Program-made: the position numbers and the translations under genes
Notes under the pieces: generated by a model
The model's database searches: none
The model's input: only the letters and a program-made list of their open reading frames with translations
Told to the model about the DNA's origin: nothing
Assembly: GCA_965219445.1 (NCBI GenBank)
Contig: CBDCNQ010000005.1
Coordinates: 1,376,001 to 1,440,000, forward strand
DNA: 64,000 bases
From: Longimicrobiales bacterium
GTDB lineage: Bacteria > Gemmatimonadota > Gemmatimonadetes > Longimicrobiales > Gaopeijiaceae
Direction: 5' to 3'
Shown here: one piece after another, positions 351-8,005 of the stretch
Position numbering within the stretch: position 1 is the stretch's first letter
Layout of the letters: every line of letters starts with the position of its first letter

Positions 351-514
351 CGCGAGCTAGGATCAAAGGCATCATAGGGGCATGGCGACCGCTACCGGTA
401 CCGATCAGCAGCGAAGCAGCCCGAAGACGAAGAGGCGTTCTCCTCCGGGAACGGGTGCGCGTTCATCATTGTTCGCGCAAGGAAGCAACCCACCTATCCA
501 AGAGGAGAACGCCG

Positions 515-1570
515 ATGGAGAGGTATATCGGACTCGACGCACACGCGTCGAGCTGCACGCTGGGGATTGTAGGCCCCAGCGGCAAGCGCTTGGGCTCGCA
601 GGTGGTGGAGACGAACGCGCGGGCGCTGATCGAGGTGCTGCGAGGGATTCCGAGGAACCGGCACTTATGCCTGGAAGAAGGGACGCTGTCGGGGTGGCTG
701 TACGAGGTGCTGAAGCCGCACGTGGAGGAGCTGACGGTGGCGGGGGTCGGCAAGAGCCGGGGCCCGAAGACCGACAAGCTGGACGCGTTTGCCCTGGCGG
801 AGAAGCTGCGGATCGGATCACTGGAGACGACGGTCTACAAGAACCGGGGCCAGTTCAGGCGGCTGGGGGAACGGGCGAAGAGCTACGACTTCTTGGTCGG
901 CGACACGGTGCGGGTGAAGAACCGGCTCAAGAGCGTGCTGCGCTCGAGAGGAGTGGCCTACGGCGCGGGGCGCTCGGTCTACTTAAAGCGCGACCGGGAG
1001 GAGTGGTTGGCCAAGCTGCCGGAAGCGAGCAGGACGACGGCCGGGTTGCTGTACGAGGAGCACGACGCACTCGTGGCATTGAGGGCGAAGGCCGAGAAGG
1101 CGTTGCTGGCGGAAGCACGCAAGCATCGAGAGTGGCATGTGCTGAAGACGTGCCCGGGTCTGGGTCCGATCCGGACGGCGGAGCTCCTGCCGGTGGTGGT
1201 GACGCCGTACCGGTTCCAGAGCCGGAGCAGGTTCTGGGCGTACTGCGGACTGGGCGTCGTGATGCGGAGCTCGTCGGACTGGGTGCGGGGTCCGGGTGGG
1301 CGGTGGGTAAGGGAACCGGTACAGCAGACGCGGGGGCTGAATCGGAACTTCAACCACACGCTGAAGCGTGTGTTCAAGGGCGCAGCGACGACGGTGATCG
1401 GTCGGGCCGAGGACGAGCCCTTGTACCGCCACTACGAGCGACTCCTGGAGGGGGGCACGAAGCCGAATCTGGCGAAGCTGACGATCGCGCGTCAGCTCGC
1501 CTCGATCGTGCTAGCGGTGTGGCGCACGGGCGAAGCGTACGACCCCAAGAGACTGGAAGCGACGGAGTAA
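515..1570 (+). CDS. IS110-family DEDD transposase/recombinase
   Basis: YIGLDAH, CLEEG and KTDKLDA (DEDD RuvC-like); CPGLGPI HhH; YCGL...RSSS catalytic serine region; GAGGAG RBS at 502-507. Confidence 0.93.
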   Translation: MERYIGLDAHASSCTLGIVGPSGKRLGSQVVETNARALIEVLRGIPRNRHLCLEEGTLSGWLYEVLKPHVEELTVAGVGKSRGPKTDKLDAFALAEKLRIGSLETTVYKNRGQFRRLGERAKSYDFLVGDTVRVKNRLKSVLRSRGVAYGAGRSVYLKRDREEWLAKLPEASRTTAGLLYEEHDALVALRAKAEKALLAEARKHREWHVLKTCPGLGPIRTAELLPVVVTPYRFQSRSRFWAYCGLGVVMRSSSDWVRGPGGRWVREPVQQTRGLNRNFNHTLKRVFKGAATTVIGRAEDEPLYRHYERLLEGGTKPNLAKLTIARQLASIVLAVWRTGEAYDPKRLEATE

Positions 1571-1599
1571 ACCGGCCTGGGATCGGCGAGCGTGGGGTC

Positions 1600-1810
1600 G
1601 AAAGCGGTCACAACATGGGGTCCGACGAAACGGAAGCGAACCGGTTACAGGGGACAGCATCCATACACACCGTGGGCCGGGGCAGAGAGCCCAAGCCCCC
1701 ACTCAAAGGCTATGCACCCCTGGAGAGCCGAACGAAGCGATGGGCCACAGAGTCCCAGATAGAAGGATGGTTCCCGCTCCAGAGCGGAGAACGCGACGGC
1801 TGTGAACGTC
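1600..1810 (+). ncRNA. Candidate bridge RNA/seekRNA of the IS110 element (boundaries approximate)
   Basis: Two similarly built internal-loop hairpins; TACACACC 1664-1671 is the reverse complement of right flank 1959-1966; ATAGAAGG 1759-1766 is identical to right end 1952-1959. Confidence 0.65.
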
Positions 1811-1963
1811 TTCCGGACTGCGATGCGGACCCTGCGAGCGCACCCCTCCCCACCCTGAGTCGTCGACCGGGCAATCCAAACCATGCGGACGCCGACGGTC
1901 AAAAAATGAGCCGACGGCGCGTGGGGAAGGTGCGTCTTGACCGCCAGCCCCATAGAAGGGTGT

Positions 1964-2250
1964 GTAAAAAGAGAGGATATCGTGGGACCCCAGGGTGCGT
2001 CCAGCAGGCCGATGTGGGAGACGCTCGAGGGGGATGGTTAGGGAGAAGGCGCAGGAGTTCATCCAACAGATCTTGGAGGAGGAAGTCACCGAGCTGTTAG
2101 GCCGGGAGAAGTCGAAGCGAAGAGAGGCGGTGGACGCGAGCCCGGGTTACCGCAACGGGTACGGCAAGGCGCGGCGGCTGTCGATGAGTTCGGGCACGAT
2201 CACGGTGCGACGCCCCCGGGTACGGGGTCTGGAGGAACGCTTCGAGAGTA
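1964..2250 (+). pseudogene. IS256-family transposase 5' fragment, frameshifted and truncated
   Basis: MWETLEG/MVREKAQEFIQQILEEEVTELLGR...GYRNGYGKARRL...ITVRRPRVRG; extra G in the G-run near 2029-2033; similarity ends at about 2250. Confidence 0.8.
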
Positions 2251-3085: not shown

Positions 3086-3709
3086 CTACCACCGCGCGGG
3101 CTTCCGAATGTTGGTGCCCGGAATCGGGTCCGGCAGTTGCGAGCGCCGCAGGGCATTGGGCCGAACATGCCGCGCAAAGTCCGCATGCGCCATGAGCTGG
3201 CGCGACGGCCTTCCGGTTCCCGGCGTCACCAGGCCGATCCGCTTGCCGTGATGCTGCTTGACCAGGCGCATGGCCTCGGCGATGTCGCTGTCGTTGCTGA
3301 CCACCACCGCGCAATCGTAGGCGTCAAGCCAACCGTCGTTAAGCAGGTGGACGGCGAGATTGACGTCCGAGCCCTTCTCCTCGGTCCGGATCACCTCCAC
3401 CGTGCGCTGGTCCCTGGCCGGCTGCGCGAGCGGCGCGCTCACCTTGTGGCTCAGGAAATGCCCGAAATATACCTCGACCTCGGGCCGGTAGCGCCGAAGG
3501 GCACGGAGATAGACGTCCTGGCGCTGGGGTTTCGACGGGTCGGCGGGGGTGCCCGACACCCGCGCCGTGAAATACTTGACCGTCAGGATGTCGTGGTGCG
3601 GTTGCAGGACCTTCGCGAACAGCGCCGGCAGGTCGAGCCATTTCCGTGGCGTTCCCTTGAGCGCTCCATAGTAGAGATTGAAGCCGTCCACATAGACGAA
3701 GGTGCGCAT
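3086..3709 (-). CDS. NYN domain (LabA/DUF88, PIN-like) ribonuclease
   Basis: VYVDGFNLYYG, EEKGSDVNLA and VVSNDSD acidic PIN/NYN motifs; 207 aa. Confidence 0.9.
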   Translation of the reverse strand: MRTFVYVDGFNLYYGALKGTPRKWLDLPALFAKVLQPHHDILTVKYFTARVSGTPADPSKPQRQDVYLRALRRYRPEVEVYFGHFLSHKVSAPLAQPARDQRTVEVIRTEEKGSDVNLAVHLLNDGWLDAYDCAVVVSNDSDIAEAMRLVKQHHGKRIGLVTPGTGRPSRQLMAHADFARHVRPNALRRSQLPDPIPGTNIRKPARW

Positions 3710-3721
3710 CGTTGCCCGCCG

Positions 3722-3781
3722 TAAAAAGCAAGGGCCTCCGAAGAGGCCCCGCGCCCTGCGGTCGAAACCGCAAGGGGTGTT
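3722..3781 (-). ncRNA. Short structured leader RNA with intrinsic terminator upstream of the NYN gene
   Basis: Minus strand: TGCGGT-TTCG-ACCGCA hairpin, then GGGCCTC-TTCG-GAGGCCC hairpin followed by TTGCTTTTT. Confidence 0.6.
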
Positions 3782-3787
3782 GCCCAC

Positions 3788-6864: not shown

Positions 6865-7918
6865 TCAATCCCAAAGCTAGTTGAAACTCGAGTGACCTCG
6901 GGACGCTCAGGCTGCGGCATGAGTCTGGCTATCGGGATGGATGATCCCGAGTTCCTTCTGAATCGCGGCACGGAGCGACGGGAGGTGGCGATAGCCGAGT
7001 AGCCTCCTGAGCCGAGGCTCGATGTCGATGAGCGCGGCGGCGAGCCAGCGCTGCTTATGGTTCGAGTTTCTCCATCGGTCGACTCTCCCACAGCGCTGTT
7101 CGGCTTGAGCGTTCACGGATTCGAGAACGTTGGTCGTCTTCAGCGAACGGCCAACCAGCGGGAACACGCCGAGTCGATGCAGGGTCAACGTCTCCTCGAA
7201 CCCTTCGTCCAGGCTTGCAACCGCCGACTGGTTGAGCTCGTCCAGCTCAGCCCGCATCGCTTTCAGGTCCCGCTTCGCCTCCTCGTAGGTGGGCCGCTCG
7301 TAGGCTCGCTGCAGACGTCCACACCAGGCCTTCTGCTCGGTGCGTGGCAGGTACGAGACCACATTCTCTCGCTTGTGCCATTGGCAGCGCTGGATAAGCA
7401 CCTGGCCCCGGAACACCGTCGTCACTGCCGACTTCAGCCCCTTGGCGCCGTCGATCACGACCAGCGCTCCGGCCGACAGATCGAGTCCCCGATCCTTCAG
7501 GGAGCGCAGAAAGCTCGTGATCACCCGGGCGTTCTCCGTTTCCGTCTGCACGAATCCCGCAAACACCTTGTCTCCCCCCATCGTCACGGCTAACGCGACG
7601 ACGATTTCGTCATTGGCAAACGTCTTGCCATCCAGGAAGAGCGCCACGACGTCGAGCTCCGTAAGCTCACGTTCCTGAAACGCCTTCAGCTGCCTGGCGG
7701 TCGCCTTCTTGAACTCCCGCGACACCGTCGACTTAGACAGCCCGATCGCCCCCGGCACTGCCTCCACCGCGGCCTCATAGTCACGACACGAGATCCCAAG
7801 CAGGACCTTGCGGAACAACCCCTCGTCCACCTCGCCCGCCGCCCAGTGCAAGCGCTCGTACGACTCCAGACGCGCCTCTCCCTCCAGACCTCGCACCCGA
7901 GGGACCCGGACCCCTCTC
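6862..7918 (-). mobile_element. IS256-family element, 5' truncated (transposase 6907 to about 7918)
   Basis: LFLDGK, VIDGAKGL, IQRCQWHK and TTNVLESVN DDE motifs; terminus TTTCAACTAGCTTTGGGATTGACTC ending at 6862; N-terminus replaced by the adjacent IS3 element. Confidence 0.88.
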
Positions 7919-8005
7919 TGCCAACTTACGTGAGACACGGAGCAGCTAAGGAATTAGAGTAGGGCGAAGGCAGAGAAACCGAGGATGCTGAGACACCGAG
8001 AGAGA

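Follow-up and report, generated by a model that had tools for sequence, protein, structure and literature searches.

IS4321 and IS5075 reportedly target the terminal repeats of Tn21-family elements, and IS1383 is said to target the inverted repeats of IS1384. The element analysed here, found in a 64,000-nucleotide stretch of DNA that we call the window, resembles these in that, as a member of the IS110 family, it enters the terminal inverted repeat of a different element at one set position, but its host belongs to the IS256 family and only the left repeat is used. It is clearly a new example of a known RNA-guided mechanism, the targeting of other elements' inverted repeats being already known from IS4321 and IS1383. 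We put at about 0.9 the probability that it is a bridge-RNA element whose specialised target is the left terminal inverted repeat of IS256-family DNA. A literature search, with ISfinder and paper supplements (which may contain the branch) outside its scope, returned no paper on IS256 ends as IS110 targets.

The IS621 bridge recombinase (Durrant 2024, PMC11208160; Hiraizumi 2024, PMC11208158; PMC13626964; PDB 8wt6) resembles the window element in several features: a DEDD recombinase with a serine (a candidate catalytic residue in the window protein), a simple internal loop each for target and donor, a target of about 14 bp, a junction promoter (PMC11208158; predicted for the window element) and a crossover predicted just 3' of a two-base core. 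Unlike in IS621, the RNA here lies 3' of the gene, the right guide precedes the left guide, the core is AG rather than CT, and the protein is only remotely related (profile E 7.8e-6 to the window recombinase). The IS1111-group seekRNA elements such as ISEc11 (Siddiquee 2024, PMC11187229) likewise have a 3' RNA with the top-strand complement first. The same paper gives guide order, 3' RNA position, sub-terminal repeats of 11-13 bp and an S(T)G motif as marks of that group. Here the long non-coding region 3' of tnp is present and the top-strand complement (1664-1671) precedes the bottom-strand match (1703-1709), but near-perfect sub-terminal repeats of 11-13 bp with extensions of 7 bp and 3 bp are absent, as is the GL-P----S(T)G motif, the C-terminal region reading GLGVVMRSSSDW (RSSSDW). 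The best sub-terminal match is a bulged 10-bp repeat, GGGGC(A)TGGCG, set in by 8 bp at one end and 7 bp at the other, while relatives, read by eye, have repeats of 8-10 bp with 4 + 4 extensions. Because the repeat and motif tests both failed, we do not file the element under IS1111; it is a member of the broad IS110 family. Its donor loop is a simple internal loop as in IS621, unlike the multi-loop form described for many IS1111 RNAs (PMC11208160). Like ISPpu9 (PMC8450116), it has a 5'-UTR structure over the transposase ribosome-binding site and a small RNA downstream of tnp, but ISPpu9 is described there as targeting REP sequences.

Element boundaries, recombinase and predicted promoter

The element and its immediate surroundings in the window are as follows.

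354..368, + strand: outer 15 bp of an IS256-family left terminal inverted repeat, ending in the left target half ATCAAAG (362-368)
369..1958, + strand: IS110-family element, 1590 bp (filled versus empty sites; homologue junctions)
515..1570, + strand: IS110-family recombinase, 351 aa (PF01548 and PF02371 above cut-off; alignment)
1952..1958, + strand: left donor half ATAGAAG, the right end of the element (24/24 right ends in this genome)
1959..2250, + strand: inner IS256 left repeat, whose positions 1959-1966 form the right target half, then an IS256 remnant shortened by deletion and truncation (PF00872 match)

The initial annotation of this DNA had set the left end at 435. The assembly of this genome (G000, 4.56 Mb) holds 24 left ends and 24 right ends of the element, and all 24 left ends extend to 369, 66 bases upstream of 435. 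The predicted target TCAAAGGGTGTGTA (TCAAAGG-GTGTGTA) held, being exactly the empty site in related genomes. What had been overlooked is that this target is the IS256 left terminal inverted repeat, whose left half (363-368) lies inside the window. A GAGCTAGGATCAAAG-type IS256 tip directly precedes 23 of the 24 left ends, and GGTGTGTA directly follows 21 of the 24 right ends; the three other right ends comprise one off-target copy, one split by a group II intron and one internal duplication. A few of the 23 copies carry a single substitution in the outer tip of 354-368, with unique DNA beyond, and in empty copies this 15-bp sequence runs straight into GGTGTGTAAA. The uninterrupted IS256 left repeat is present 44 times as perfect empty sites in a related genome (G003/G134), from which it follows that the insert is 1590 bp and that a target duplication is absent. 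Filled and empty sites differ by exactly this 1590-bp element, at a fixed site and in a fixed orientation, without terminal inverted repeats; since a G is shared, 370-1959 is an equivalent placement in the window copy.

The crossover is placed by homologues in which the junction bases are informative. Among 20 elements with both ends, seven have A before the crossover at the left junction but G at the right. In two of the 20, the base after the crossover is G on the left side and A or C on the right; of 30 right flanks, 5 begin with T or C. These bases put the net crossover at AG|G, so that the (A)GG core initially proposed was near the mark but imprecise, and they predict the circle junction ATAGAAG|GCATCAT (CATAGAAG|GCATCATAGG) in place of the earlier CATAGAAGGCGTTCTCC. 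The circle itself would form by analogy with IS621 and ISEc11; its joint was not found among the contigs (as distinct from raw reads) of four sequencing runs.

The host is a Mutator-type transposase element (NF033543, 303 bits against a cut-off of 150) with related left and right 25-bp ends and target duplications of 8-9 bp. Its remnant beside the element (2031-2249) matches the intact IS256 transposase at 79%, and similarity stops near 2250. The window also holds a second, unrelated IS256-family transposase (6907-7938, minus strand), 28% identical to the targeted one, and at 3086-3787 (minus strand) a frame that we take to resemble an NYN-domain protein, beside phage-integrase-like fragments.

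The recombinase gene is flanked by 146 bp of non-coding sequence at the left end and 388 bp at the right, the latter being the long region downstream of tnp. Its product scores 39.7 bits with PF01548 (cut-off 29) and 32.4 with PF02371 (cut-off 21.3); with NF033542 it reaches 112 bits (cut-off 140), against 143.5 for a 40% relative. Residues D8, E55, D87, D90 and S253 are invariant in 14 aligned homologues. S251 and S253 are invariant and S252 nearly so, just past the GL motif, and the IS621 alignment ends before that region. By analogy with the described recombinases of IS621 and ISEc11, the protein would be a DEDD plus Ser enzyme with S253 as the candidate catalytic serine. The branch is large and divergent, with 3119 proteins at E <= 1e-30 among 8000 scored, and plasmid-borne IS110 proteins reach 27% identity to the window recombinase at best. 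The 351-aa reading frame is intact in 16/22 IS110 copies in G000 and altered in length in 6/22.

Four short features around the gene bear on its expression.

370..375, + strand: predicted -10 box CATCAT of a circle-junction promoter, 17 bp from the -35 box after end joining
434..445, + strand: upstream arm of a hairpin in the 5' UTR, matching 502-513 as a perfect 12-bp inverted repeat
502..513, + strand: ribosome-binding site region and 3' hairpin arm (GAGGAG just ahead of the ATG at 515)
1937..1942, + strand: predicted -35 box TTGACC of the circle-junction promoter

The segment GGAGAACGC (1786-1794) is complementary to 435-443, as annotated, and together with GAACG it had been taken for a pair of guides for the left end. 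That assignment does not hold, since 434-445 pairs with 502-513 over the ribosome-binding site; as a left-end guide, the GGAGAACGC motif also does not track the 5' arm in a clade at ~50% identity (4-7 base complement). The hairpin forms in the fold, with an arm of at least 7 bp in 38/53 homologues and at least three sequence versions, and it would be expected to damp translation of the recombinase. Joining the ends as ATAGAAG|GCATCAT places TTGACC 17 bases from CATCAT, which would build a sigma70-type promoter, TTGACC-17-CATCAT; activity of such a junction promoter is suggested by the precedents of IS621 and ISEc11. This layout is kept in homologues: the left end begins with G in 76/77 (found by a GCATCAT-type motif search), and a TTG-hexamer stands at a constant distance from the end in 31/31 parsed right ends (TTG was in the search anchor, the distance was not).

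Bridge RNA and guide covariation

The region 3' of the gene carries the following features.

1648..1722, + strand: target-binding loop (RNAalifold and pair counts, 45 sequences)
1664..1671, + strand: right target guide TACACACC, pairing with the top strand of GGTGTGTA (covariation with right flanks)
1703..1709, + strand: left target guide TCAAAGG, pairing with the bottom strand (covariation with left flanks)
1725..1773, + strand: donor-binding loop (RNAalifold and pair counts, 45 sequences)
1734..1738, + strand: candidate right donor guide GAAGC, which would pair with left-end GCATC with one A-A mismatch
1759..1766, + strand: left donor guide ATAGAAGG (tracks the right end)
1770..1792, + strand: alternative 3' hairpin with GGAGAAC, competing with the donor-loop closing stem (minimum-energy folds)

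The initial annotation had read an IS110-family recombinase with a 3' bridge or seek RNA here, loop 1 being target-binding and loop 2 donor-binding, and homologue structure and covariation bear this out. The strings on which it relied are in place: CAGGGG (1648-1653) closes the first loop with CCCCTG (1717-1722), the stretch at 1664-1671 is the reverse complement of 1959-1966, TCAAAGG lies at 1703-1709, the stretch at 1759-1766 equals 1952-1959, and the donor-loop stem GAGCC/GGTTC pairs with one G-U. Single-sequence folding was no better than shuffles (z -1.30 and -1.03). Given 45 sequences, RNAalifold returned the two-loop structure unaided, with 22 pairs, 9 of them with double changes; in a 27-pair structure 91% of cells were paired, with 120 double changes against 52+/-7 in shuffled alignments, and slid controls were at most 53% paired. 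On this comparative evidence the two-loop bridge RNA at 1648-1773 is real, and it may be expressed as are those of IS621 and ISEc11; RNA-run contigs, which are no measure of expression, cover 598-883 and 1970-2000, not 1648-1773. An extra A in the linker between the loops is present in 8/22 IS110 copies in G000 and a 5-base target-loop deletion in one; separately, one contig of run X8 has an extra A after 364.

Alone, the loop matches would be weak, as the quoted 8-mers have 102-123 occurrences each in the 4.56 Mb genome (counting those in IS copies); it is the comparison of homologues that makes them more than chance. We examined 158 loci (the window, 77 from genomes and 80 from metagenomes) and parsed the two-loop RNA from 57, the others lacking the region or falling outside the search pattern; the guide tests used the window and loci below 90% identity. 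The guide/flank covariation that the initial annotation had named as a check was found. The left target guide matched the left flank at 142/161 positions in 23 elements (permuted 90.1+/-5.3), the right target guide matched the right flank at 153/216 in 27 elements, taking the best of two registers (permuted 108.1+/-5.9), and the left donor guide matched the right end at 217/217 in 31 elements (permuted 197.8+/-3.0). These values were reached in 0/20000 permutations, which take no account of relatedness; behind the donor-guide signal stand two or three independent changes, and the right-end search pattern fixed part of the donor motif. The right ends tracked by the left donor guide are ATAGAAG in 16, ATGGAAG in 13 and CTGGAAG in 2 of the 31 elements. 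For the right target guide at least two pairing registers occur across homologues, and 8/27 score 4 or less of 8. GAAGC is a conserved 4/5 match to GCATC, and because both are conserved there is no covariation to read; we infer its role as a right donor guide as a candidate only.

It could be argued that the recombinase protein itself recognises the IS256 end and that the RNA matches are incidental, the target being a conserved protein-binding repeat, although nothing specific speaks for this. Homologues at 47-82% identity have different flanks, each tracking its own guides, and below 90% identity a single homologue locus (L065) has an IS256-type gene nearby, ~1 kb off. We consider protein-directed targeting very improbable indeed. 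Several variant copies are of note in this context. At L009/L192 (G005) a 95%-identical copy with altered guides, TCACTAGG and TACGCACC, sits in the IS256 right repeat, where its changed left guide TCACTAGG faces TCAATAG; on its right side the repeat is not continued. Two off-target copies, C2:336716 and L209, keep the left-guide match; the off-target copy in G000 sits where nine bases match the left guide region. In a 40%-identity clade (L035, L039, L043, L045, L051) the RNA layout is kept with guides ending in C (ATAGAACC), and the right end ATAGAAC, the left end GCATTAT and a perfect 10-bp sub-terminal repeat were read by eye.

In more distant homologues the targets are short and scattered. 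That the family as a whole targets IS256 is not supported; among the loci examined the habit is confined to the lineage at 95% identity or above. Insertion after stop codons as a family-wide habit, suggested by the 66/77 left flanks that end in TAA or TAG, was rejected by an open-frame test: open frames of at least 100 codons end at the insertion in 7/49 cases, against 62/371 for control triplets and 15/98 for other frames.

We propose that the element would excise as a circle with joined ends ATAGAAG|GCATCAT, where the junction promoter TTGACC-17-CATCAT would drive the recombinase mRNA and the downstream RNA, the 5'-UTR hairpin damping translation from the ribosome-binding site. Pairing of the target loop would then involve both strands of ATCAAAG|GGTGTGTA, the donor loop would pair with the circle junction, and the DEDD/Ser recombinase would exchange strands without duplicating the target, the net crossover falling at AG|G. 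Insertion would interrupt the left repeat of the IS256 at 15 bp inside the tip, which, to judge from the described systems, would probably immobilise that copy until the guest excises.

Occupancy of the IS256 host and altered empty sites

In G000, 23 of 28 IS256 left tips are filled and 5 are empty, while 0/29 right repeats, which differ from the target at two bases, are filled. No perfect empty target remains in this genome, and perfect and altered sites differ in being filled or empty (Fisher p 1e-5, for copies that are not independent). The same filled junction occurs in 7/151 family genomes, in 4 genera. Saturation as a general rule is not supported: G108 has 6 filled and 5 perfect empty sites, G134 has 1 filled site with an intact gene and 44 empty, and G061 has 1 filled and 1 perfect empty site. 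In G004/G113, 5 left tips are filled and 10 are empty, all 10 with other alleles.

Filled copies might alternatively descend from one or few insertions, with the IS256 multiplying as a composite together with its IS110 guest. Most filled IS256 bodies are indeed identical (12 of 18 compared show zero differences from the reference, itself among the 12), 9/28 left tips have their own 8-9 bp target duplication, and one unit stands at the same flank in G000, L006 and run X1. However, IS110 alleles with up to 23 differences between them are found in identical IS256 bodies, identical IS110 alleles lie in IS256 bodies 144 differences apart, and across several genera different IS256 subtypes share one and the same insertion base. 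The alleles of the two elements show no congruence (Mantel rho 0.003, p 0.42, 19 copies), which favours repeated invasion over composite spread in a test of low power that recombination between copies may blur. Spread as a composite is in our view quite improbable.

Some structural observations on the copies should be recorded. At 11/28 left tips in G000 (C2-C5) the flank matches the right flank of another copy, reflecting either rearrangements between IS256 copies or misjoins. A group II intron of ~1.9 kb (G000 C4:1169763-1171670, minus strand), with a reverse-transcriptase-like frame containing YADD, interrupts one filled copy within its right target half, at GGTG|TGTA; the intron's 5' end has 13 copies in G000, several after hairpin-like or T-rich sequence. 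In tandem partial duplications (G000 C5:1611126-1613260; L191, L199, L203) the right end is joined inside the recombinase gene and the 3' part with the RNA is repeated, with one extra copy in G000 and two in G002; partial circles are reported for other IS110 elements in bioRxiv 10.64898/2026.08.14.744561. L002/L188 (G001) has three extra bases (AAG) before GGTGTGTA at the right junction, through imprecise insertion or duplication. Among the sequencing runs, one that matches well carries the label sponge metagenome.

Four of the five empty sites in G000 (C4:199262, C4:1221680, C5:267938 and C5:483712) change only within the four bases before the crossover, with one allele per copy: TCGAAG, TCAGAAG, TCAAG and TCAGAG. 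Elsewhere, over about 1360 bases, these four copies are identical to a filled sibling. In the four-base stretch the target has AAAG and the donor GAAG, so TCGAAG is an exact swap, provided that the AG core is correctly assigned. The allele at the fifth empty site, GTGAGTA, is common to G005/G063 and hence inherited.

IS621 offers a possible source for such changes: its top strand is cut between positions 9 and 10 and its bottom strand between 9* and 10* (PMC11208158), which, as we read the numbering, staggers the cuts by four bases, and a mismatch of two bases beside the core is expected (PMC13626964). The altered empty sites may accordingly be excision scars, kept because precise excisions get refilled; we hold this tentatively, with chances a little short of even. 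The reciprocal swap is absent from all 24 filled left-end junctions in G000, and our literature search, paper supplements outside its scope, returned no paper on donor-base scars. It is somewhat unlikely, in our estimation, that the sites are instead consensus artefacts, that is, partly filled loci assembled without the insert, with hybrid junctions arising from polishing. Donor and target left halves are 5/7 identical, so that reads from filled copies can align across; the three G-containing variants are confined to G000, occurring in 0/313 other family genomes; and the swapped flanks of 11/28 copies are perhaps misjoins. Yet the IS256 bodies in the assembly are error-free over about 1360 bases, G108 has both filled and empty copies and shows five perfect empties and no hybrids, and one variant is exactly the predicted 4-base swap. 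Ordinary point mutants of the IS256 repeat that escaped invasion would leave a similar pattern through survivor bias, and here one may point to other IS256 subtypes that vary at the same positions (TCAAAAG, TCAAATG, TCAGGGG), to the inherited GTGAGTA allele, and to G004/G113, where 10/10 empty left tips carry other alleles beside 5 filled copies. We nonetheless regard such escape as unlikely, given four otherwise unchanged copies, each with a single change of its own, and every change confined to four bases of the 14-base target, those just before the crossover; three of the changes add a G, and among the matches listed 0/26 GAGCTAGG-type tips, from seven genomes without a filled junction, have such a change.

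Building on the tentative reading of the sites as excision scars, we speculate on a wider cycle, which we hold as possible rather than probable. The element in G000 would have saturated its host IS256, and the remaining empty sites would record its own excisions, a four-base staggered exchange leaving donor bases behind (TCGAAG, +1, -1 and shifted repairs) and making that end resistant to re-invasion while precise excisions refill. This would amount to a self-limiting parasite-host cycle between two insertion sequences, in which guides shift from the left to the right repeat (G005) and escape alleles are present in several copies (G004). IS621 is described as tolerating one or two mismatches, and immunity of the altered sites is therefore not assured.

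The locus adds a fully mapped bridge system from a large divergent IS110 branch. Its combination of simple loops as in IS621, RNA position and guide order as in IS1111, and an AG|G crossover makes it a ready candidate ortholog for programmable recombination. An RNA-guided insertion sequence filling 23/28 IS256 left ends is possibly a brake on IS256 spread. If the altered empty sites are real, they bear on the repair of the mismatched bottom strand after excision, which is left as a possibility in PMC11208158, and if their reading as scars is true, they would document, in a natural setting, how the bottom strand is repaired after bridge recombination.
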